NCBI GenBank assembly: GCA_040326155.1
Contig: JBEQLE010000018.1
Span: 1 to 41,815 of the forward strand
DNA from: Leptospirales bacterium
Lineage (GTDB): Bacteria > Spirochaetota > Leptospiria > Turneriellales > JAOUFE01
DNA length: 41,815 nucleotides
Direction: 5' to 3'
Position 1 is the stretch's first letter; each line of letters opens with the position of its first letter. The position numbers and the translations under genes are program-made. The notes beneath the pieces are model-generated. The model worked only from the letters and a program-made list of their open reading frames with translations, searched no databases and was not told where the DNA came from. Of the stretch, positions 7,307 through 36,955 are shown in pieces.

Positions 7307-8164
7307 ATGCAAACAGTAAAAACAATTCACGAAATGAAATCGATAAGCGCTCAGCATCGATGTAACTTTCCTGACAAGAAAATAACTTTAGTACCCACCA
7401 TGGGATTCTTACACGAAGGACATTTATCGCTTATTCGTATAGCAAAAAAAAAAGACAACTTCGTCATAGTTTCCATTTTTGTAAATCCCATTCAATTTAA
7501 CGACCCCGCCGACCTCGAAAAATATCCACGCGATGAAACCAGTGACATAGAGAAACTAAACGCTTCGGGTGTGGATCTTTTGTTTATACCCACGACCCTC
7601 GATGTCTACCCGGACGGTCCCCCCGATATAAGAATCGACTACCCTGAAATTACAAATAAACTTTGCGGTAAAAAACGCGTTGGCCATTTCTCAGGAGTAT
7701 TAACCGTCGTGCATAATTTATTTCAATGGGTAAAACCCCATGAGGCAATATTCGGTCAAAAAGATTACCAGCAACTCCTCCTCATTCGAAAAATGAGCAC
7801 AGAATTAAACATGGATGTAAAAGTTGTAAACGGCCCCACGATCAGAGAAGCCGACGGCCTCGCAATGAGTTCGCGTAACTCCCGCCTCTCAGACGAAGGA
7901 CGACAAAAAGCGATAAATATTCACAAGGCATTAAAAGCCGGTTGGAACTTGCACAGAAACAACAAAACCCTTAGCGCTGCGCATATTTTAGAGCAGATAA
8001 TCGACATACTGCAACAAGCCACAATCGAAATTGAGTATATCGGCTTATACAACCCCGAAACCCTGGCCGAACTCGATCTGGCAAAACCGGTACCGAAAGC
8101 TCTGGTCGCCTGCGCCGTGTTTGTCGACGGTGTTCGCCTCATCGATAATATTTTGTTGGATTAA
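7307..8164 (+). CDS. panC: Pantoate--beta-alanine ligase
   Basis: 'VPTMGFLHEGHLSLI', 'SIFVNPIQF', 'FGQKDYQQ', 'READGLAMSSRN', 'RLIDN'. Confidence 0.98.
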   Translation: MQTVKTIHEMKSISAQHRCNFPDKKITLVPTMGFLHEGHLSLIRIAKKKDNFVIVSIFVNPIQFNDPADLEKYPRDETSDIEKLNASGVDLLFIPTTLDVYPDGPPDIRIDYPEITNKLCGKKRVGHFSGVLTVVHNLFQWVKPHEAIFGQKDYQQLLLIRKMSTELNMDVKVVNGPTIREADGLAMSSRNSRLSDEGRQKAINIHKALKAGWNLHRNNKTLSAAHILEQIIDILQQATIEIEYIGLYNPETLAELDLAKPVPKALVACAVFVDGVRLIDNILLD

Positions 8165-8198
8165 ATTTTCACTGGTGGGTAATTTCCGACCAAAAGCT
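8055..8198 (+). repeat. 144-bp direct repeat, copy 1 (panC 3' end plus 34 bp downstream)
   Basis: Ungapped match to 9864-10007 with 15 mismatches by manual alignment. Confidence 0.95.
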
Positions 8199-8278
8199 TA
8201 ACAAGACAGACGACGTCAGGAGTATTTTCGTAGCGTAAAAGTACTGCATTCTCAAGTTCGTTGTGCGGAATGCTACCG
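8168..8278 (+). repeat. Dispersed hairpin-rich intergenic repeat 'A', full copy
   Basis: Ungapped 111-bp match to 11654-11764 (5 mismatches). Internal palindromes GGTGGGTAATTTCCGACC, AGTATTTT..AAAAGTACT, GCATTC..GAATGC. Confidence 0.9.
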
Positions 8279-8453
8279 CGCTAAGTTCTATGTATTCTGG
8301 TTTAATGATTTATTCAGGTGGTGCAATGTGGAATTCGCGGAATAAAATGTTGGGCGCAATGGCGAGAATCCTTATTTTATATTCAGAAGTATTGATCTTC
8401 CATATAAATAGAACTTGCCCGGATATCTAAAATATTATTCCATATACGATATT

Positions 8454-9521
8454 ATGGATAATTTCAGATTAACGAACTTGCCACCCGCCGCTGATCTAGA
8501 AACATTGGAAATAATGAAAGCCTTAAATAGGGCTAGCAGGTCACTGGCTGAATTAAAAGGAGAAGCAAAAACTATTCCAAACGAAAGAATACTCATAAAC
8601 ACTTTAAGCTTACAAGAGGCAAAAGACAGTTCGGCCATAGAAAATATTATTACGACAAATGATGAACTTTTCCGTGCATCAGTTGATGAATCTTTCAAGA
8701 ATTTAGCAACTAAAGAAGTCCAAAACTATTCCGAGGCATTGAAATATGGCTTTAAACTTATTAAAAAATTCGAATTACTGACAACGAATCATATAGCGAA
8801 AATCCATGAAAACCTGGAACCAAATAAAAAAGGATTTCGTAAAATCCCCGGAACCGCCTTAAAAAATGATATCACCGGAGAGACAGTATACACTCCTCCG
8901 CAAAATCATACCGAAATAATAAACCTGATGTCGAACTTAGAGAAATATATTAATGACGATGGTTTACACAATATTGATCCGTTACTTAAAATGGGAATTA
9001 TCCATTTTCAATTCGAAAGTATTCATCCATTTTATGATGGCAATGGAAGGACAGGCCGAATCATAAACATACTCTATTTAGTTTTAAAAGATTTATTAGA
9101 TATCCCTGTCCTATATTTGAGTCGTTATATTAAAAAAAATAAAGGAGAGTACTATCGACTACTCCAAAATGTTCGCGATAAAGAAGATTGGGCTGCATGG
9201 TTAATTTGGTTATTAAATGGTGTAACTGAAACATCCATGAATACGATGATAATGATTAGAGAAATGAATATTCTAATGAATCATTATAAAAAAGAGATTA
9301 AAGAAAAATATAAATTTTACAGTCAAGATTTGATAAATAATCTATTCGCACATCCCTACACAAAAATTGAATTTATAGAAAACGACCTAAAGGTACACAG
9401 AAATACAGCGATGTCTTATCTAAATGAATTATGCGCCGGAGGGTATCTGATAAAAACTAAATTTGGAATTTCAAATTATTACATTAATGAACCCTTATTT
9501 AATCTATTAAAAGGCGATTAA
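8454..9521 (+). CDS. Fic family protein (Fic_N + Fic + C-terminal winged helix; SoFic-like)
   Basis: Canonical Fic motif 'HPFYDGNGRTGR' and inhibitory motif 'SSAIEN'. Start placed at ATG 8454. Confidence 0.95.
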   Translation: MDNFRLTNLPPAADLETLEIMKALNRASRSLAELKGEAKTIPNERILINTLSLQEAKDSSAIENIITTNDELFRASVDESFKNLATKEVQNYSEALKYGFKLIKKFELLTTNHIAKIHENLEPNKKGFRKIPGTALKNDITGETVYTPPQNHTEIINLMSNLEKYINDDGLHNIDPLLKMGIIHFQFESIHPFYDGNGRTGRIINILYLVLKDLLDIPVLYLSRYIKKNKGEYYRLLQNVRDKEDWAAWLIWLLNGVTETSMNTMIMIREMNILMNHYKKEIKEKYKFYSQDLINNLFAHPYTKIEFIENDLKVHRNTAMSYLNELCAGGYLIKTKFGISNYYINEPLFNLLKGD

Positions 9522-9829
9522 TGTTTGCACAAATTAACTGGTTTTTTTGTGCAAAAAAGGTTAACCTGCACAATATTTGAATTAATTTGTGTAAATGATT
9601 GGCTCTTCACTACTGCCACTACCTGTGGTCCATCGATTTCAATACTATGGACAACCTGCACGGTAGAATATTGAATATTAAGTTCAGTAAAAGAATCAAA
9701 CTGTGTAGGATTATATCGAATAACCAGTTTTCCAGGATCTGCCCCTCCCGGATTTCCTGAGCCACAATAGTATACAAAAACAATAACAAGAATCAACACC
9801 CATTTGTTAAATTTCCCATATTTATTCAT
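9518..9829 (-). pseudogene. 3'-truncated/chimeric paralogue of the putative lipoprotein at 11212-11562
   Basis: 9623-9832 aligns ungapped with 11356-11565 (first ~69 codons). Homology stops at 'EIDGPQ' and the tail runs through the fic-adjacent inverted repeats. Confidence 0.7.
9524..9593. repeat. Two tandem inverted repeats TGCACAA-N14/N13-TTGTG(C/T)A immediately after fic
   Basis: TTTGCACAAA (9524-9533) / TTTGTGCAAA (9546-9555); TGCACAA (9567-9573) / TTGTGTA (9587-9593). Confidence 0.7.
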
Positions 9830-9863
9830 TTGATAATTTTATTTCCAGCGCGCAAGAGTTGAA

Positions 9864-10007
9864 CCGAAACTCCGGTCGAACTAGATCTGGCAAAACCAGT
9901 ACCAAAAGCCCTGGCCGCCTGCGCCGTGTTTGTCGACGGTGTTCGCCTCATCGATAACATAATGTTCGATTAAATTTTCACTGGTGGGTAATTTACCAAC
10001 AAAAGCT
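9864..10007 (+). repeat. 144-bp direct repeat, copy 2: orphan panC 3' fragment (stop at 9971-9973) plus start of repeat A
   Basis: Encodes ETPVELDLAKPVPKALAACAVFVDGVRLIDNIMFD* versus panC ETLAELDLAKPVPKALVACAVFVDGVRLIDNILLD*. Confidence 0.95.
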
Positions 10008-10092
10008 CGCATGGCTGACTAAGGTAGACCACTTTTCAGTATAAACTAACAAACCTTTTGTGATTCTCTGCCCGCACAAATTTATAAATTAG

Positions 10093-10121
10093 TTGACGAT
10101 AGTATCGCTTAATGATATTAT
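10093..10121 (+). promoter_or_regulatory. sigma70 promoter of higBA with overlapping palindromic operator
   Basis: TTGACG-N17-TATTAT. Palindrome ATAGTATC-N7-GATATTAT (10099-10121) overlaps the spacer and -10. Confidence 0.7.
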
Positions 10122-10126
10122 AGTAT

Positions 10127-10408
10127 GTGATTGATAGATTTTCGTGTAAGGAGACTGAAAAAATATGGAATCAAGTTTATTCCAAAAAGTTCCCAAGCGA
10201 TATTCAGGCTATAGCTCTTAGAAAACTCATTATGATAAATCGAGCTACTGATTTAAATGACTTAAAGGTTCCACCAGGCAATCGGTTGGAAAAACTTAGA
10301 GGAAACAGGGAATCTTATTATAGCATTAGAGTAAACAATCAATGGCGAATCTGCTTTAAGTGGGTTAATGATAAAGCTAATGATGTTCATTTAATTGATT
10401 ATCACTAA
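10127..10408 (+). CDS. higB: HigB-type (RelE/ParE superfamily) toxin
   Basis: 'DLKVPPGNRLEKLRG', 'YSIRVNNQWRICFKW', C-terminal 'IDYH'; toxin-first gene order. Confidence 0.93.
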   Translation: MIDRFSCKETEKIWNQVYSKKFPSDIQAIALRKLIMINRATDLNDLKVPPGNRLEKLRGNRESYYSIRVNNQWRICFKWVNDKANDVHLIDYH

Positions 10409-10717
10409 ATGGAGAAAAATATGAAAAAAATAAAAAACATTCATCCGGGTGAAATTCTACGAGAAGAATTTATGGTCCCTATGAAACTATCTGCCTACAG
10501 ACTGGCAAAGGAAACACATATTCAAGCAACTAGAATATCTCAGATAATTCATGAGAAGAGATCAATTTCTTCAGATACTGCATTACGATTATCCAAATTC
10601 TTTGGCAACTCTCCAGATTTTTGGATGGGGCTACAAGTCGAATATGAGCTTAGAAATAGAAAAACTGAAATCCAGGATGATCTGAAAAAAATTCATCAAT
10701 ACTCCGAAGCAATTTGA
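10409..10717 (+). CDS. higA: HigA-type antitoxin (HTH-XRE)
   Basis: 'IHPGEILREEF', 'RISQII.EKRSIS.DTALRLSKFFG.SPDFWMGLQ'. Confidence 0.93.
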   Translation: MEKNMKKIKNIHPGEILREEFMVPMKLSAYRLAKETHIQATRISQIIHEKRSISSDTALRLSKFFGNSPDFWMGLQVEYELRNRKTEIQDDLKKIHQYSEAI

Positions 10718-10824
10718 ACCTTAACTTTTTCTCCAACAGAGTTTCTTGGAATCTATTTCTGAAAAATCTTGGATTTATAACAAAAATAAAGTGCTACAGA
10801 CCAAGACTACAATTTAACTCTCAG

Positions 10825-11211
10825 TTAAGGACAAGCCACCTTACTTAATACTACTGTCGGACACCCATTGCTATACCGGCAATATTCGCAAACATGCGCG
10901 TGAGCGTTCAACTCATTCTCAATAAGGGTAGCTTCATTGTCAGTGATTCCATCGACTCGTATATATAGATCATAAGAAATGGAAGTTACTTTATCAAAGT
11001 ACACTACCCTCCCCAATGCTGTTTCAATATTGGTATCTACTTCTTTGACTTCAGTGCTCGTTGCCGTTGAACTGAAATTCACAGAATAAATGGCTTGTGC
11101 ATCACTACTGCCACTACCCCCATTATTGCTGCAATTCACGGCTAAGAAGATAGCCATAATCGACGCAATAATTCCAACTCCTATAAATCTATTGAACCGC
11201 ATTATATACAT
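10825..11211 (-). CDS. Putative lipoprotein of unknown function
   Basis: Signal peptide ending LAVN-C followed by a Gly/Ser linker; Cys-rich tail (CEYC...C...C). Abuts the upstream paralogue-family gene. Confidence 0.7.
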   Translation of the reverse strand: MYIMRFNRFIGVGIIASIMAIFLAVNCSNNGGSGSSDAQAIYSVNFSSTATSTEVKEVDTNIETALGRVVYFDKVTSISYDLYIRVDGITDNEATLIENELNAHAHVCEYCRYSNGCPTVVLSKVACP

Positions 11212-11562
11212 TTAGCCTCCTGGAACCGGAAACACTTGTAGAATCTGATGTACGAAGCCAGGCTCAACTTCAAAAGTTCCGATTGCGGGTGGAATTTCTT
11301 TGGGAAATCCAATAAAATTTATTTCACCAGGGTCCGCTCCCAGATCGATGATTGTCTGTGGTCCATCGATTTCAAAACTATGGACAACCTGCACGGCAAA
11401 ATATTGAATATTAAGTTCGGTAAAATAATCAAACTGTGTGGGATTATATCGAATAACCAGTTTTCCTGGCTCTGCCGGTCCCGGATTTCCAGAACCACAA
11501 TAGTATACAAAAACAATAACAAGAATCAATAGCGATTTGTTAAATTTCCCGTATAGATTCAT
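11212..11562 (-). CDS. Putative small exported/lipoprotein of unknown function
   Basis: Hydrophobic N-terminus ending VYY-C then GSGNPG; N-terminal ~69 aa conserved in the paralogue at 9518-9829. Confidence 0.7.
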   Translation of the reverse strand: MNLYGKFNKSLLILVIVFVYYCGSGNPGPAEPGKLVIRYNPTQFDYFTELNIQYFAVQVVHSFEIDGPQTIIDLGADPGEINFIGFPKEIPPAIGTFEVEPGFVHQILQVFPVPGG

Positions 11563-11653
11563 TTGTCATTTGACATTTTACTCGGGAAAATGTCAAATGT
11601 TTTTATTTCTAGGGCTAAACAATTGAGCCGAAACGTCAGATAGAATCGAAACG

Positions 11654-11764
11654 TTCATTGGTGGGTAATTTCCGACCAAAAGCTTAACAAGGCAGACGAC
11701 GTCAGGAGTATTTTCGTAACATAAAAGTACTGCATTCTCAAGTTCGTCGTGCGGAATGCTACCG
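11654..11764 (+). repeat. Dispersed repeat A, second full copy
   Basis: 106/111 identical to 8168-8278. Confidence 0.9.
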
Positions 11765-11863
11765 GGCGCTGCAACGCTACCAAATTCTAACGCCAAGGAT
11801 AACCGAAAACCAAAACCGTCAGTGGAACTTCTTGCATACTTGATTGCGCAAGTGAGTATCGTT

Positions 11864-11939
11864 GAGGAGCCAGGTGCGGTAATTCCGCACGCCAGGATCT
11901 GTATGGGGGGTGCCGGGTAACCGGCATTCCTACCACGAC
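11864..11939 (+). mobile_element. Group II intron 3' remnant (domains V and VI); no RT/maturase ORF
   Basis: D5: GAGCCAGGT-GCGG-TAATT-CCGC-AC-GCCAGGATC (11867-11899) with AGC triad and AC bulge. D6: GGGGGGTGCCGG-GTAA-CCGGCATTCCTACC with branch-point-like A, ending CACGAC (AY terminus). Confidence 0.88.
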
Positions 11940-13080
11940 GGCGAAAATACTGTGGTTTATAATTAATAATTACTTAACTTGTAATATTTTTTAAATCCTT
12001 CCCCTCTTTGTTTAATGTATTCTTTGATTATCTGAAACATAACAGTATCGTTGTTTTCTAACATGTTTTCATTATATACCAAACTTCCAGCTTTATAAAT
12101 TTTTTTATTATCATCATTTTTCTCATATTCCAACATCCAGGTTTGAACTATTCCATTTTTTAGAAATAATCGCAATACTGTATGCTCGACTAGCCTTGAC
12201 TTAGTATAATTACCCGTTGACGTAACTTCTCTAACCTGTCTCTCATACTCTAAAAGTCTAGTATAGTTTATTTCTTTAGACGCTACGATTAGTTTTCTGT
12301 TTTTTTCAAAAGTTAATCTACGCTGAGGTTCATCACCATAGATTTGATAGATTTGCACTTCATTCGTTTTGCCTGATATGATCTGAAAATTAGAATTGTA
12401 TGTAAAATCAGAATCCTGATAAAAAATATCATCTTTGAATATTTTGTTATCCTTAAATATTGGCCTTAATTTTTCCGTTTGCGGTATTAATATAGTATAT
12501 TTTTTACTATCCTTAACAGAAATAAAACTCTTCAAAAACAATTCCCAAGATCCACTTTTCTGGCTAGGTGTAAAATTTACCATGCATACTAAGCCTTTTC
12601 CTATGTGTATAAATGCATGAAATTCATTCTTATCATCTTTTATTACTTTTACAAATAGTATAGCACTCTCTCCTATTTCTTTTCGAATGCTTTCAACTTT
12701 CTCACTGTGAAAAAGTTGTTTTAAAACTTTGGCTATTTCATACTGTTCGATATAAAATTTGTTCTCTCTATAGTAAAATCCTGATCTAATTCTAAAGTTA
12801 TAAATATCATTATTTAATTGTATACCTTGAGATTGTCCTTCATTTAGTTCTATTTTTAATTTGTCTTCCGAGGAAGTTAAATCAAAATTAATTAGAACAC
12901 TAGATTTAGGTACTTTTGTATATTCACTTTCAATTACCAAATGTAGGTTCGAAGTGAGCGAATCAATATTTAGCAGATCGACCAACTTAATTACATACTC
13001 TTTCTTGGTTGCTCGTATACTGGCCATTAATACCAGCAATAGTATTATGAATTTTTTCTTCATACGCATCTTCGCCTAAC
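11940..13080 (-). mobile_element. Integron-type gene cassette with disrupted attC
   Basis: On the - strand, core GTTAGGC (13080-13074) + GAAG + ATG. After the stop, ATTTTCGCC (11948-11940) complements GGCGAAGAT 8/9 and is cut where TAAC is expected. Confidence 0.65.
11963..13069 (-). CDS. Hypothetical secreted protein (cassette cargo)
   Basis: 368-aa ORF, N-terminal signal peptide 'MKKKFIILLLVLMASI', visibly more AT-rich than flanking housekeeping genes; no recognised family. Confidence 0.8.
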   Translation of the reverse strand: MRMKKKFIILLLVLMASIRATKKEYVIKLVDLLNIDSLTSNLHLVIESEYTKVPKSSVLINFDLTSSEDKLKIELNEGQSQGIQLNNDIYNFRIRSGFYYRENKFYIEQYEIAKVLKQLFHSEKVESIRKEIGESAILFVKVIKDDKNEFHAFIHIGKGLVCMVNFTPSQKSGSWELFLKSFISVKDSKKYTILIPQTEKLRPIFKDNKIFKDDIFYQDSDFTYNSNFQIISGKTNEVQIYQIYGDEPQRRLTFEKNRKLIVASKEINYTRLLEYERQVREVTSTGNYTKSRLVEHTVLRLFLKNGIVQTWMLEYEKNDDNKKIYKAGSLVYNENMLENNDTVMFQIIKEYIKQRGEGFKKYYKLSNY

Positions 13081-13176
13081 AAGTCTGTAGAATAAGTAAA
13101 ATCAGATGGCTGTACCCCCTCTAGATTGCAGTACAGGGTATAAAATCAGGCCAAAATTGACTTATCCTACAGACTC
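13081..13176. mobile_element. ~96-bp MITE-like element with 16-bp terminal inverted repeats
   Basis: AGTCTGTAGAATAAGT (13082-13097) / ACTTATCCTACAGACT (13160-13175), 1 mismatch; flanked by AAC on both sides (13078-13080, 13177-13179). Confidence 0.6.
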
Positions 13177-13414
13177 AACAGATTTTAATCTGCTCACGCC
13201 TTGGCCGGGCATTCGGGTTTCGCATCTTATTGTACTTCGAAATGTTCTTTACATTTAAAGAGATATAAGATCAAATGTTTTTTCTTAGATGCTCAACCAC
13301 ATTTTGGGACTGCCTTCGCTTAACCGCCATGATGTGCGCAAATTATGGAGGTGAATTGGTGCTCCTACGGCTGTCTCAGGTAGTCTCAAAAAGTCAGATA
13401 AACTGGAAACATTG

Positions 13415-13438
13415 GGTGGTGGGGAATTTCCGACCACC
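13415..13438 (+). repeat. Partial copy of the repeat A 5' hairpin
   Basis: TGGTGGGGAATTTCCGACCA versus TGGTGGGTAATTTCCGACCA; extended palindrome GGTGGT..ACCACC. Confidence 0.7.
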
Positions 13439-13651
13439 AACTTCAATCGATAGTCGCTGGCCCAGTATTCGGTAGGCCACAAGCTCTGTTCAAGCTTGCG
13501 ACACCGCCTCCCTACGACCGCTGCCGCTAGGTCTTCGGTCGGTAGCATTACGCGCTATAAACATGTAGAATGAATTACCTTTACGCTACGTTTTTTCCTG
13601 AATGGTAGACTGCCTGATCTTACTTGGTATGTTCCAGGAAAGAAAATAGAC

Positions 13652-14932
13652 CTAAGGTAAGAGCCAGAGACTGAGTTCGGGAATGTATGTGATGATCAGT
13701 TGAGCCCCGATTAAAATGAGTAAAAAGGGAAAGACCGATTTGTAGATTCCGGGTAAGGGTTCTTTAAATCGGAAGGATGATAAAAACAGGTTAATGCCTA
13801 CGGGGGGTGTGATGTAGCCAATTTCCAGGTTTGTTAGAAATAGAATTCCCAGGTGAACCATATTGATGCCGAACATTTCTGCTACGGGTATGACGATGGG
13901 GGCGACGACGATGATGGCTGAAAAGATGTCCATTAGTGCGCCTACGACCAGCAAGAAGATGTTGAGCATTATTAAGAAGGTATATTTGGACTGGACGTAA
14001 TTTTGAATCCATTCGAAAAAAATCTGTGGAACCTGATGGTCGATTAAAAAAGAGGTAAAAGACATGGCGAAGAATATAATCGCTAGAATACCCCCTAAAA
14101 GAGAAAAGGACTCTTTCAACATAGACCCGAATTGTTTGAACTTAATTTCTCGAAATATAAGAGTTTCCAATATGAAGAAAAAGAGAAACATCAATAACGA
14201 AATTTCTGAAATGGTTACTTTGCCTTTTAAAAATAACATGAAGACCAAAGGTATAATCGAAATTTCAACAATGAATTTTATCCATTCTGGTTTTTCGGGT
14301 TCGTCCTTTGTTTCGGGTAGTGAGATTTTCCTGGTTACGATAAAAATATAGATCGAAGGAAGTAGTATCAATAATAGACCCGGCATAATGCCTGCAAGAT
14401 ATAGATCTTTAATGGATACTGTGTTTTGGGAAATTATACCATATAATATAACGGGGATACTCGGGAAAAATAAAAGTCCTAAGGAACCCGACGAAGTGAT
14501 AATTCCAAGAGAGAGATTGCGACTATAACCGGAGGCGAGTAAAACCGGCATCAAAATTCCACCTAAAGCGACAATGGTTATACCCGAAGCTCCACTAAGA
14601 GGGGTAAATAGTGCCGATACAACTACGGCAAGAATACCAACCGAAAAAGTGGCCCCACGAAACGGACGCAATAATAAAGTTCGAAAGACATTGAATAACC
14701 TGTCGGGAAATTTGCTTTTCGCGAGCATATACCCTGTGACTGTAAATAATACCAGAGGCAATAAAAGCTCGCCCTGTGTTAGTCGACCATAAGGGTCCAA
14801 AAACGTCATAATCAACGCATCTGGACCTTCATACATATAAAAAAGCGCCACACTAAGCCAACCCAACCCTGCAAAAAGCGGCATGCCGTGTAAAATCAAC
14901 AGTATAATAACTAAAATAATTATTGCGTTCAC
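13652..14932 (-). CDS. dctM: TRAP transporter large permease subunit (DctM family)
   Basis: 'SGSLGLLFFPSIPVILYG', 'LYLAGIMPGLL', 'NLEIGYITPPVGINLF'. Confidence 0.92.
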   Translation of the reverse strand: MNAIIILVIILLILHGMPLFAGLGWLSVALFYMYEGPDALIMTFLDPYGRLTQGELLLPLVLFTVTGYMLAKSKFPDRLFNVFRTLLLRPFRGATFSVGILAVVVSALFTPLSGASGITIVALGGILMPVLLASGYSRNLSLGIITSSGSLGLLFFPSIPVILYGIISQNTVSIKDLYLAGIMPGLLLILLPSIYIFIVTRKISLPETKDEPEKPEWIKFIVEISIIPLVFMLFLKGKVTISEISLLMFLFFFILETLIFREIKFKQFGSMLKESFSLLGGILAIIFFAMSFTSFLIDHQVPQIFFEWIQNYVQSKYTFLIMLNIFLLVVGALMDIFSAIIVVAPIVIPVAEMFGINMVHLGILFLTNLEIGYITPPVGINLFLSSFRFKEPLPGIYKSVFPFLLILIGAQLIITYIPELSLWLLP

Positions 14933-34394: not shown

Positions 34395-35720
34395 TTATCC
34401 CCTCAACTTCTCTATTCGTTGTTTAGCTAATGCAGATTCTTTATCTTTGGGCGGCATCTGGGTCACTTTTGTATATATACCCATTGCTCGGTTTTTGTCA
34501 TTCTTCTTCTCGTAAATTTCACCAATCGAGATCATGGCTTTTTTAATCGTCTGACTTCTGGGGTATTTTTTTACGAATTTGGAAAAACACTCAAAAGCTT
34601 CCACCGTATCGCCTTTTCTATGGTGAGTCCTGCCTTTTTCATACAGGGTTTTTTCTAGAATGGGTATATCTGTTTCCGTAGCGACAGTCTCCCTAGAAAG
34701 AATTATTTGATATTTTGATATCGCAGCGTCCCAGCTTTCTTGCGAAAAATCGTTCAAACCTGCATAGTAAAGTTCACTAATCGTCTGTTCACCGGAAGCT
34801 GTGGCGACGTTTGTACCGGCGTCAAGACTCACGTCTGGTAAATCAGGTAAATCAGGTAAATCGGGCATATTGGGTATATCGTTTAGATCGGGCATATCAG
34901 GCATATCGGGCATATCGGGTATAGACGCACTGCCGCCGTTATTTGAATCAGGAATGTCCGGAATACTTTCGAGGTCTGGAATAGCGTCAAGATCTGGTAT
35001 GTCTGGCAACTCGCTCATACCGTCTGCTTCGCCTAAGTCGGGAACATCCATATCAATAACATTATCCACGCTGAAATCAGATGGATTAAAACTGTCCGGG
35101 GCGGCCGCACCGACCAAATCGGCACCCTGGTTATTTATAGACTCAAGCTCCTGGTCAACTTCTTGTGCATCAATAGGAAACGGGTGACCTGATTCAATAA
35201 GAGAGAGCATTTTTTGCGCCCTTCCCGCAAGTTGGGAATCTTTGTACGCTTCTAAATAGCCTGCGAAGGCATATTTTGCATGTTCAATTTCATTTTTTTT
35301 GTAAAAATATTCAGCTGTTTTTAATAGATCTACTGTGTTATCATGTTCTATTGCACCACCAAGCAACTCACGTACTTTACGGTGTACTTTTCGAAGCTCC
35401 CCTGAAAAAACTTTTAACATTTGCAATACAATTCGAGAATTCTTCATGCAAAATGTTTGAAATATAGCAGGGTTAAATACAAGTACGGTGGAATCTGTTA
35501 AAACCTGGGATGTTTCTTCTCTAGGGTATAAACCGAGAGCAGATTTTACTCCGAAAAATTCTCCTTTGGAGACTTCTTCACGAACTTCCGAATGGTTATC
35601 GAGAGATTCGGATATTAATACAATTCTGCCTTTTTGCAAGACAAATATATCTGTTCCTTTATCTTCAATAAAATAGATAATAGAACCGGCTTTATATGTT
35701 CTTAATACAGGACCATTCAT
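34395..35720 (-). CDS. cNMP-binding domain + TPR protein with acidic Pro-rich repeat linker
   Basis: N-terminal cNMP fold ('IFVLQKGRI', 'EFFGVKSAL..PR'), TPRs, and a (P-D-M/L/I)n linker. Start placed at ATG 35720. Confidence 0.85.
   Translation of the reverse strand: MNGPVLRTYKAGSIIYFIEDKGTDIFVLQKGRIVLISESLDNHSEVREEVSKGEFFGVKSALGLYPREETSQVLTDSTVLVFNPAIFQTFCMKNSRIVLQMLKVFSGELRKVHRKVRELLGGAIEHDNTVDLLKTAEYFYKKNEIEHAKYAFAGYLEAYKDSQLAGRAQKMLSLIESGHPFPIDAQEVDQELESINNQGADLVGAAAPDSFNPSDFSVDNVIDMDVPDLGEADGMSELPDIPDLDAIPDLESIPDIPDSNNGGSASIPDMPDMPDMPDLNDIPNMPDLPDLPDLPDVSLDAGTNVATASGEQTISELYYAGLNDFSQESWDAAISKYQIILSRETVATETDIPILEKTLYEKGRTHHRKGDTVEAFECFSKFVKKYPRSQTIKKAMISIGEIYEKKNDKNRAMGIYTKVTQMPPKDKESALAKQRIEKLRG
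34835..35050 (-). repeat. 9-bp-period coding repeat encoding PD(M/L/I) tripeptides
   Basis: + strand AATCAGGTA AATCAGGTA AATCGGGCA ... TATCAGGCA TATCGGGCA TATCGGGTA; protein IPDMPDMPDMPDLNDIPNMPDLPDLPDLPDV. Confidence 0.85.
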
Positions 35721-35725
35721 AAATT

Positions 35726-36955
35726 TCACCAAGCTTCTACAGGTAGAAATTCAAAAGTTTTTTGAAAGCCTACCGCGTCGCGTACCTTATCGAGTAACCC
35801 CAATAAGTCGCCATTAATAATCTTCTTATACGAGTCTACTTTTATTTTTTGGAATGGTATTTCCAGTGCTTCGAAAAGCGGAATAAAACTTTCATCTGCG
35901 TATTTTGGTATGCCATCTATAACTACCAACATTATATCTTCATAACTCATATCTGTTATCGCTGAATATGGATTGCTTTTATCTCCGTTTACTATAATTA
36001 GGTCGGCTAAATACCCTTCTTTTATTTGCCCCTGCCGTTTTAAAGAAAATGCCTGGGCTGGATTTTTCGTAAGCATATTCAAAATGGTTTTTTGTGCCAA
36101 CTCTTCCCCGTAAGCCTCTTTATAGAACTCCTGTCCTACAAAAATTTCTTGAAAAAGACTGGATGAACCGGACATTGGTGAGTCAGTTCCCAGGCAGACG
36201 TTAATTTTGTTATCTAGTAATTTCTTTATGGGGGCGGTTTGTTCAAACATATATAAATTCGATGCCGGACACCAAACCACATTACACTCATTTTGTTTCA
36301 GTAATTTAATATCGGCATCTGAAAATGCAATTCCATGCACCAATACCGTGTTTTTACTTAAAGCTTGTTTTTCATTTAAAGTAGTAACAGAACGAATTGT
36401 TTCTTCGTCATACCCTTCCGAGCAATGGGCGACGAAAGGAATATCGTTTTTTGTGGCATTTGCATGTTCATTCTCAATGGTATCGCCCCATTTTAAAGAA
36501 AACGAAGTTACCGAGTGTGCTACCGCGTACTCTTCAATCAGCTTAATCGGCAAATCGTCTTTAAACATATCTTGAACAAAGTGTGGTATGTGATCTTGGA
36601 CTGAGGTTATTCCACATAACAGGTGGCGAAAAGCCCCCATCTGGTATAAATCTTTCGATTCAATCTGTTGCCTTTCTGCATATACAGGGTTGGACTTTAA
36701 ATCGTTGTCCCATACCAACCAGTTCATGTATGGTTTTCGGTCGCCGACTCGCGGCATGTACGAACCCAGCAAATGATCGTGTCCGTTAATTAATCCAGGG
36801 TATACTATTAATCCGTTTAAATCAATTTGTATGTTGGAGCTTCCGCCCTCACCTTTGCCAACTTTGGCAATTTCATCTTTTTCAACCGTTAAAGTTCCGT
36901 TTTGGATTACGGTATCTGGTGTTACAATGGTTCCGTTTATCAATTCCCAGCTCAT
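35726..36955 (-). CDS. Metal-dependent amidohydrolase (deaminase-like)
   Basis: 'PGLINGHDH', 'AHCSEG', 'VHGI', 'WCPASN', 'GTDS', 'G.LADLI'. Confidence 0.9.
   Translation of the reverse strand: MSWELINGTIVTPDTVIQNGTLTVEKDEIAKVGKGEGGSSNIQIDLNGLIVYPGLINGHDHLLGSYMPRVGDRKPYMNWLVWDNDLKSNPVYAERQQIESKDLYQMGAFRHLLCGITSVQDHIPHFVQDMFKDDLPIKLIEEYAVAHSVTSFSLKWGDTIENEHANATKNDIPFVAHCSEGYDEETIRSVTTLNEKQALSKNTVLVHGIAFSDADIKLLKQNECNVVWCPASNLYMFEQTAPIKKLLDNKINVCLGTDSPMSGSSSLFQEIFVGQEFYKEAYGEELAQKTILNMLTKNPAQAFSLKRQGQIKEGYLADLIIVNGDKSNPYSAITDMSYEDIMLVVIDGIPKYADESFIPLFEALEIPFQKIKVDSYKKIINGDLLGLLDKVRDAVGFQKTFEFLPVEAW

Follow-up and report, generated by a model that had tools for sequence, protein, structure and literature searches.

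A 5'-truncated group II intron beside an attC-like site in a Leptospirales genome, and a non-IIC intron lineage with recurrent GTTA junctions

This study concerns a 41,815-nt stretch of DNA from a Leptospirales bacterium (assembly GCA_040326155.1, contig JBEQLE010000018.1), here called the window, and a piece of a group II intron within it. On the plus strand, 11867-11939 is a genuine group II intron end consisting of domains 5 and 6 (D5-D6). It belongs to a remnant of about 11761-11939, which is 5'-truncated and dead. The remnant is probably the relic of a mobile group II intron that retrohomed at ...ACGTTA/ (a slash marks the junction throughout), i.e., at the outer end of an attC-like site bounding a cassette with a 368-aa gene. 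In what follows, C-numbers denote contigs of this genome (G000), G022 is one of 40 relatives, and L-numbers denote loci in public genomes.

Structure and extent of the intron remnant

The plus strand reads ...GGCATTCCTACCACGAC up to 11939, and GGCGAAAAT follows directly at 11940-11948. We aligned 37 sequences, namely the window copy, four sister copies from the same genome, and 32 copies from other phyla, which came from a random pick of 34 among 96 distinct public copies. RNAalifold predicts 26 pairs on this alignment, with compensatory changes in 10. Of the 11 pairs in domain 5, those at columns 1/33 and 7/27 covary, and both the AGC triad and the 2-nt bulge are present. The G.A opposite the triad G is kept in 37/37 sequences. 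One D5 pair is broken (A.A at columns 6/28), a defect that the window copy alone has among the 37. In domain 6, a bulged A (window 11932) is located 7 nt before the 3' end, which reads ..CACGAC at 11939. The original prediction had placed the D5-D6 3' end of a group II intron at this position, and the covariation of the fold, the sister copies, and the protein-coding remnant described next all agree with it.

Alignment of the window to intron bodies is limited to 11836-11939, where 86/104 bases are shared with a 671-nt intron of Alkaliphilus lacking an open reading frame (ORF) and 97/101 with the copy on C29. For 11657-11838, the scores against intron bodies (36.5-38.5) show no excess over shuffled sequences (30 ± 4.6, maximum 46.5-49). 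A shrunken version of domains 1 to 4 (D1-D4) in this stretch was rejected, as its similarity is not above that of the shuffles. The stretch 11754-11852 is 82% identical to C58:1997-2095, which codes for the C-terminus of the intron-encoded protein (IEP); by tblastn, C58:1910-2074 is 56% identical to residues 400-454 of the L051 IEP. The in-frame window translation, RALQRYQILTPRITENQNRQWNFLHT followed by the stop, parallels ..RAMKRYQILTPRITETQNRQLSFLPP and stop in C58. Because the upstream stretch encodes the IEP C-terminus in the same frame as C58 and the body is absent, the remnant begins near 11761. It thus retains the C-terminal ~26 codons of the IEP gene, followed by D5 and D6.

At ~11761, ACCG links the remnant to a stretch (11654-11767) that is a 95% copy of what follows the panC stop (8168-8281), and a repeat-unit fragment (11631-11656) stands immediately 5' of this copy. 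Two other 5' ends were considered and rejected. GTGCGG (11749) is inside the panC-downstream copy, and GTGCGC (13334), which other units do not conserve, is part of a covarying repeat-unit hairpin. The D1-D4 ribozyme body with its exon-binding sites (EBS) is missing from the window copy and was found in the sister copies on C98 and C29. As D1-D3 and the EBS are absent, the remnant can neither splice nor move, and the window copy is inert. Deletion of the 5' intron and the IEP had been proposed before. D1-D4 and nearly all of the IEP are gone indeed; the last ~26 IEP codons survive.

Sister copies and the intron lineage

The genome holds six D5-D6 copies, three of them at contig starts. The repeat at window positions 11839-11947 recurs at C29:4824-4922 (97%), C107:1-142 (80%), C58:3-76, C29:1-61 (the last two both at contig starts), and C89:3718-3787 (minus). 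A copy is also present in one of the 40 relatives (G022). An intact 5' part is found at C98:42350-43151, where it directly follows a repeat unit, ..GAAACGTTA/GTGCGCCAAG (further read GTGCGCCAAGAAAGCTTGG..). It matches the Rfam family RF02005 (group-II-D1D4-6) with 142.5 bits and continues into the N-terminus of the IEP, where the contig ends. An IEP-bearing copy is represented in this genome as pieces on C98, C157, and C58. At C29:4638-4925, we found an internally deleted copy that keeps both ends and has the same 5' junction as C98, minus 5 nt. Within it, C29:4669-4771 matches RF02005 above the gathering threshold (49.8 bits), 52 nt upstream of the C29 D5-D6 copy.

With a degenerate D5 pattern derived from the copies of this genome, public genomes from many bacterial phyla and some archaea yielded at least 121 loci. 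Fourteen of these loci were scanned with Rfam, and RF02005 was detected in nine (69-188 bits) and RF00029 in none. The Rfam D5-D6 model is blind to this lineage, as RF00029 matched 0/14 loci while RF02005 matched 9/14. No gathering match was obtained in the whole 41.8-kb window, and at E values up to 10 nothing intron-like was reported in 11500-13700. The best signal is the D5 model at 11864-11903 with 18.1 bits (gathering 53; E 0.11 in a 221-nt search). RF00029 (Intron_gpII), the model with which the original prediction was to be checked, has a gathering threshold of 40 bits that the window copy does not reach, and the best sister copy (C107) scores 33.9 bits. Since RF00029 reaches gathering in none of the 14 loci holding introns of this lineage, the silence of Rfam in the window is uninformative.

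The IEPs of the lineage contain RVT_1, with a weak GIIM match in one, and no HNH domain in 4/4 scanned proteins, i.e., they are endonuclease-less (En-minus). Introns without an ORF were found in Clostridium thermobutyricum, Alkaliphilus, Paenibacillus sp. FA6, and Desulfosporosinus; the L031 copy measures 671 nt. The lineage has an RF02005-type ribozyme and an endonuclease-less protein. Class E is a candidate assignment only, as the En-minus status and the occurrence in archaea and Chromatiales fit statements on class E in the available parts of PMC4424553 and PMC7923331. A circularly permuted intron, a lead taken from PMC5737381, was dropped because the sister copies keep the normal domain order; moreover, circular permutation is unneeded, as the succession of D5-D6, cassette, and next site is the outcome of tandem insertion.

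The genome also contains group II introns of another, unrelated family, which has a canonical D5 (RF00029 30-60 bits) and a 437-aa IEP. Its copy at C142:17927-19832 starts with GTGCGAC; a repeat unit ends in GTTATCG 23 nt before this start, and the copy is on the other side of that unit. Other copies of this family are located at C122:5668-5744, C97:5515-5609 (minus), C85:58029-58092, and C68:563-601.

Junctions and target recognition

Four ORF-less copies share the 5' junction ..ACGTTA/GTGCGCC and the 3' end ..CCGTGAC/, which is followed by TACGATA, TATGTAA, GATGAAA, or TCTGAAA. An nhmmer model of the intron 5' end yielded the further 5' exons CCGTTA, CCGTTG, and TTGTTG, plus the unrelated AATGCG. 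The six bases in which the 5' exon ends, the intron-binding site IBS1, covary with the EBS1 loop, which is aligned with ..ATTTAACGTTACGG.. of C98. In a comparison of 15 rows, 3 of which are gapped in this block, TAACGT faces ACGTTA in 6 copies, and TAACGG faces CCGTTA in 2 copies plus 1 copy with a mismatch. The other combinations are CAACGG with CCGTTG, CAACAA with TTGTTG, and CGCATT with AATGCG. The pairing is an ordinary 6-bp EBS1-IBS1 interaction.

A non-IIC intron lineage homing to attC sites at GTTA/ had been proposed from the window sequence, with recurrent junctions and EBS1-IBS1 pairing as the observations to look for. Both were found. Sister copies, some of full length and some without an ORF, are seen repeatedly at ...ACGTTA/, and their 3' exons have the form [TG]G[CT]G[AC]AA; AATGCG is the one unrelated 5' exon. 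The exclusion of the IIC type also stands. IIC-attC introns have the junction TTGT/T in the R'' core box and an IBS1 of 3-4 bp. Here, the junction is GTTA/, EBS1 and IBS1 pair over 6 bp with compensatory changes, and the ribozyme body is of the RF02005 type.

The 3' exons of the copies in this genome are GGCGAAA, TCGGAAA, TGTGCAA, TGCGAAA, and GGCGAAA, which resemble the sequence after GTTA at uninterrupted units. In the window, 106 nt of unrelated sequence separate the remnant from the repeat-unit fragment, and the 5' junction of the window copy is therefore deduced from the sister copies.

From these observations, the following course of events is proposed. An En-minus, RF02005-type intron with an AGC triad and the conserved G.A in D5 would reverse-splice into DNA at ...ACGTTA/. 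The site would be chosen by the EBS1 loop (UAACGU), which is predicted to pair over 6 bp with the last bases of the 5' exon, namely the core-box GTTA and two spacer bases. Later, everything 5' of the final ~26 IEP codons would have been lost by an illegitimate join to the panC-downstream copy at the ACCG microhomology.

The window cassette and its complementary boxes

The cassette next to the remnant carries the 368-aa ORF on the minus strand, where 13080 down to 13067 reads GTTAGGC-GAAG-ATG in front of it. The first ten cassette bases, GGCGAAAATA, match GGCGAAGATG (the reverse complement of 13067-13076) at 8/10 positions, counted by eye. Against 39 other repeat-flanking boxes of the genome, the window 3' exon reaches at most 6. 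The complementarity of the two window boxes, which had been noted at first sight of the sequence, is thus beyond chance.

The same holds for the four other intron-flanked cassettes of the genome, which match their own downstream box at 8-9/10 positions, a value equaled by 0 of 38-39 other boxes. Taken together, the 3' exon matches its own downstream box.TAAC best in 5/5 cases (versus 38-39 other boxes). Among public loci, 4/71 match their own box with at most 2 mismatches, while 200 shuffles gave a mean of 0.255 and a maximum of 3. In the Paenibacillus array, box matches of 8/10 occur twice.

Repeat units with attC-like ends

The units bounding such cassettes form a repeat with about 50 loci in the genome (53 loci by BLAST; 64 pattern matches, some of which are spurious). 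The left end of a unit reads (box)TAAC-AAATTTTGATCTGCTC. The middle consists of a GC hairpin, an optional segment of ~65 nt, and a long covarying hairpin. The right end reads ..AAAACGTCAGATAAAATyGAAAC-GTTA(box). Short-type units have 175-190 nt and long-type units ~240 nt; the window unit has 340 nt including an insertion. The latter resembles a miniature inverted-repeat transposable element (MITE), and MITE-like copies occupy the same unit position in C58, C83, C21, C91, and C159. Because the 96-nt insertion interrupts the window unit, only the motif GCCTAAC was seen in the original prediction, which took the rest of the attC as deleted. Of another unit, a 26-nt right-arm fragment is left at 11631-11656. 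The intact unit at the far end of the cassette (13074-13413) was overlooked.

When three units were folded as single-stranded DNA (both strands), their ends paired with z-scores of -2.1 to -8.3. In these three units, the paired ends leave one extra base and a GAAAC spacer, and the centre is a three-hairpin junction. With respect to the core boxes RYYYAAC ... GTTRRRY of attC sites, the units have conserved TAAC at one end and GTTA at the other.

All 10/10 pairs of neighbouring units no more than 5 kb apart have both members in the same orientation, at a spacing of 789-4167 nt. In 10 pairs (MITE-disrupted ones included), the decamer after GTTA is complementary to the one preceding the next TAAC at 4.9/10 positions on average. 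The control of 1000 shuffles gave 3.31 ± 0.39 with a maximum of 4.7. The island in the window contains HigB/HigA, Fic, and orphan lipoprotein-like genes. We file the sites as attC-like and not as proven integron attC because the core-like ends, cassette-specific boxes, co-oriented arrays, and cargo stand against the length, the dispersal, and the lack of a canonical IntI. The repeats may be recombination sites of an integron-like system.

Recombinase candidates

No canonical IntI was found in the genome: with TIGR02249 (cut-off 265 bits), the best match reaches 102.7 bits per stretch, and a whole protein on C12 reaches 181.8 bits. The 40 relatives also have none above 265 bits. The best candidate is this C12 protein (C12:8240-9298, minus), a 353-aa XerA/IntI-like tyrosine recombinase at a contig end with an extra N-terminus of ~80 aa. 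It scores 206 bits with NF040815 ("XerA/integron integrase"; cut-off 220), skips TIGR02249 positions ~185-238, the region of the IntI-specific insert, and is 37% identical to a Paenibacillus protein encoded ~0.8 kb from the array in that genome. A similar recombinase gene is located near a site in Desulfosporosinus and also in a locus of a Nitrospirae metagenome-assembled genome (MAG).

A GTTATCGGCAATAAA motif occurs at C12:9455-9470, 160 nt upstream of the recombinase start and with no repeat unit before it. It could be an attI-like junction. C106:4930-5757, which lies beside three repeat units, was rejected as an integrase since it is XerD (356 bits; cut-off 329.6). A tblastn search with four recombinases against 120 pattern-scan loci hit L096 and L038 only. 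On an Anaerolineales MAG contig with a true IntI (441 bits), a crude scan saw no intron and no attC pairs, which is uninformative.

In Paenibacillus sp. FA6 (L152, NZ_CP188820.1, 4462000-4479500), one strand carries a recombinase gene and three attC-like sites ending in AACGTTA, with an ORF-less intron in the third. This is an integron-like array in a Firmicute, with a recombinase that scores below the IntI cut-off.

Polarity of the insertion

The layout is always unit(+)..GTTA/intron(+)/box-content-box.TAAC-unit(+). As the boxes are inverted repeats, this layout cannot tell which end is R'. The window remnant is antisense to the 368-aa ORF, and the ORF starts 4 nt after GTTAGGC on the opposite strand. 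Such an arrangement would be expected if the intron had entered the bottom strand within R'' of the cargo cassette's own attC, now deleted, in the manner of IIC-attC introns. The longest ORF is likewise antisense in 5/9 cassettes of the genome and in 3/6 of those following intron ends, and the symmetric layout and the box complementarity are blind to the naming of the ends. Even so, these counts (5 antisense versus 4 sense; 3 versus 3) are those of a mixed population. In other genomes, the longest ORF has the intron's sense in 6/7 closed cassettes after such introns. The original claim of an antisense insertion into the inverse core thus fails as a general rule.

Other observations also speak against the antisense arrangement. 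The two Paenibacillus cassettes upstream of the intron, each with an ORF followed by box.TAAC-site-GTTA, point in the intron's direction, as does the recombinase gene. The right arms there (ACGTCAGGAATGCCAAAC-GTTA) resemble those of this genome, with ACGTCAG-N9-11-AAAC-GTTA common to both. In the window itself, an intact unit of the same polarity (13074-13413) closes the cassette. We therefore regard the antisense R'' insertion as doubtful and lean towards an insertion at the R' end of the preceding attC-like site, in the sense of the array, based on the 6/7 sense cassettes elsewhere, the directions in Paenibacillus, and the similar right arms. With this polarity, the cargo gene in the window would be an inverted passenger.

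Nature of the sites and weighing of the evidence

A different possibility is that the units are a dispersed selfish repeat, such as a MITE, a REP element (repetitive extragenic palindrome), or a hairpin derived from IS200/IS605 insertion sequences (IS), and that the intron merely homes into this repeat. Many bacterial introns home into IS elements. About 50 copies in ~40 contigs, several of them deep inside large contigs, the conserved sequence and branched fold, the failure to find a canonical IntI in the genome and 40 relatives, and the occurrence of other small insertions within units (the MITE-like element at 13081-13176) would all fit. The complementary inverted boxes, however, flank the content between units and not the units, a pattern that target-site duplication cannot yield. 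The co-orientation of 10/10 pairs, the typical cassette cargo (HigBA, Fic, orphan genes), and the analogous Paenibacillus and Desulfosporosinus arrays, which lie next to an XerA/IntI-like recombinase, also argue against a selfish repeat, which we consider improbable.

That a GC-rich hairpin pair mimics D5-D6 by chance, as the missing Rfam gathering match in the window and the broken D5 pair might suggest, is extremely improbable in view of the 97% identity to the C29 copy 52 nt downstream of an RF02005 match, the 86/104 bases shared with the 3' end of the 671-nt Alkaliphilus intron, the in-frame IEP C-terminus upstream, and the structural covariation.

Several points weigh against a retrohomed intron at an attC-like site. 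With 175-340 nt and a branched centre, the units are longer than classical attC sites, which have ~57-141 nt. They are dispersed over ~40 contigs and do not form one array, and the purine/pyrimidine pattern of the core boxes is only partly kept (GCATAAC, GTTATGC). No canonical IntI was found, as described above. In the window, no repeat unit directly adjoins the remnant. ORF polarity in the genome is mixed, and the naming of R' and R'' is based on arrays of other genomes. Finally, the class name (E) is only a candidate.

Possibly, and we put this forward tentatively, the observations reflect an integron-like cassette system without a canonical IntI, with long branched attC-like sites and an XerA/IntI-like recombinase devoid of the IntI-specific insert, in this genome, Paenibacillus, Desulfosporosinus, and the Nitrospirae MAG. 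With it would go a non-IIC intron lineage dedicated to such sites, whose ends it reads by a 6-bp EBS1. If so, GTTA/ would be 3 nt beyond the presumed G/TT crossover, and the next cassette would begin with the intron, which could thereby travel from array to array by cassette recombination and splice out of sense transcripts.

Features of the window and the surrounding island

Table 1 Features of the intron remnant, the adjoining cassette, and the flanking repeat units in the window
Feature	Position	Strand	Remarks
Right-arm fragment of attC-like repeat unit (..ACGTCAGATAGAATCGAAAC-GTT-C)	11631-11656	+	26 nt; matches the conserved right end of the units; 93% to four other units
Filler, non-intron copy of panC-downstream sequence	11657-11767	+	95% identity to 8168-8281
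3' end of IEP (reverse transcriptase/maturase) gene	11761-11843	+	~26 codons, stop 11841-11843; start is the intron 5' truncation point
Domain 5	11867-11899	+	33 nt; AGC triad, AC bulge, conserved G.A opposite triad G; one pair broken (A.A)
Domain 6	11902-11939	+	GUAA loop, bulged branch-point A 11932, 3' end ..GAC; alignment fold
3' exon, first cassette bases (GGCGAAAATA)	11940-11949	+	Rest of core box after GTTA; sequence and box matching
Cargo ORF	11963-13069	-	368 aa, signal-peptide-like N-terminus, no Pfam family; not found in 40 relatives
Closing box CATCTTCGCC, then TAAC	13067-13080	+	RYYYAAC-like GCCTAAC at 13074-13080; sequence
Complete attC-like repeat unit, long type	13074-13413	+	Left arm TAAC-(A)ACAGATTTTAATCTG, right arm ..GTCAGATAAACTGGAAAC-ATT; closes the window cassette
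MITE-like insertion inside the unit	13081-13176	+	96 nt; 15-nt inverted ends AGTCTGTAGAATAAG / CTTATCCTACAGACT, flanking AAC repeats; sequence

Between panC and dctM (8165-13651), the whole stretch has the appearance of a rearranged cassette island. A duplication (8055-8198 and 9864-10007; 1.8 kb apart, 90% identity) covers the terminal 110 nt of panC together with the downstream sequence. Parts of this downstream sequence (TGGTGGGTAATTTCCGACC...) are met again behind two repeat-unit ends, at 8163-8281, 11649-11767, 13389-13443, and 13540-13590 (minus). Typical cassette cargo is encoded here, namely a Fic/DOC family protein (8415-9521) and a HigB-HigA toxin-antitoxin pair (10127-10717). In addition, two paralogous lipoprotein-like ORFs of 103 and 116 aa (9518-9829 and 11212-11562, minus), which belong to no Pfam family, are 91% identical over 210 nt.

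Outside the island, 34830-34923 contains at least 7 tandem 9-nt repeats (TAAATCAGG-like) within the overlapping ORFs 34395-35732 (minus) and 34801-35187 (plus).

Comparison with known systems

In the available parts of PMC4424553, attC targeting is assigned to class C introns only, which use a hairpin plus 3-4 bp, insert into the bottom strand, and are antisense to the cassettes; bacterial ORF-less introns are described there as rare. The available parts of PMC7923331 (Sonbol and Siam 2021) give TTGT/T in R'' and an antisense orientation for IIC-attC introns. They also report group IIB introns of halophiles beside attC sites, namely UHB.I2 (CL1 IEP), which is located just after an attC in cassette orientation, and H.ha.F1/F2, 5'-truncated class E relics in an IntI-less cluster of attC sites (CALIN) of Halorhodospira halochloris with attC-like hairpins upstream. 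The two supplementary text files of PMC7923331 contain no D5 sequence for comparison. No further paper on non-IIC introns in integrons was found in a body of literature with few subscription journals.

ORF-less group II introns that are mobilised in trans by a related IEP are known from the Thermosynechococcus elongatus family. The present lineage resembles such cases, for which a general statement is found in the accessible part of PMC4424553, in that ORF-less copies occur and this genome holds an IEP-bearing copy. In contrast to the rarity stated in that part, ORF-less copies of this lineage recur in at least 4 Firmicutes genomes at the same kind of site.

As far as the available parts of PMC7923331 and PMC4424553 describe them, IIC-attC introns of the S.ma.I2 type share with the present lineage the mobility, the En-minus IEP, and the insertion just 3' of an attC hairpin beside the core boxes. 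Truncated relics in cassette arrays, which are common among IIC-attC introns, are another likeness. These class C introns differ from the lineage described here, which has an RF02005-type ribozyme, a 6-bp covarying EBS1-IBS1, the junction GTTA/, and, in other genomes, mostly the cassette sense.

Among the cases in the accessible text of PMC7923331, H.ha.F1/F2 are very close to the window, as they are 5'-truncated, retain D5-D6 and part of the IEP, and reside in an IntI-less array rich in toxin-antitoxin genes. UHB.I2 is similar as a non-IIC intron immediately after an attC or attC-like hairpin. As reported there, however, the exons that flank UHB.I2 are poorly conserved and the 5' junctions of the truncated copies are unseen. 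Here, ...ACGTTA/ recurs with a covarying EBS1 across phyla. PMC7923331 contains neither a conserved junction nor an EBS1 argument for its introns.

The window would thus contain one relic of a second, unrelated intron lineage that reaches cassette sites by 6-bp EBS1-IBS1 homing at GTTA/, probably on the other strand. As the lineage occurs in several phyla, often without an ORF, it offers a case in which convergent targeting of cassette junctions can be tested, and it suggests a route by which introns may ride cassettes. The junction ...ACGTTA/GTGCGCC may serve as a marker for unannotated cassette arrays in IntI-less genomes.

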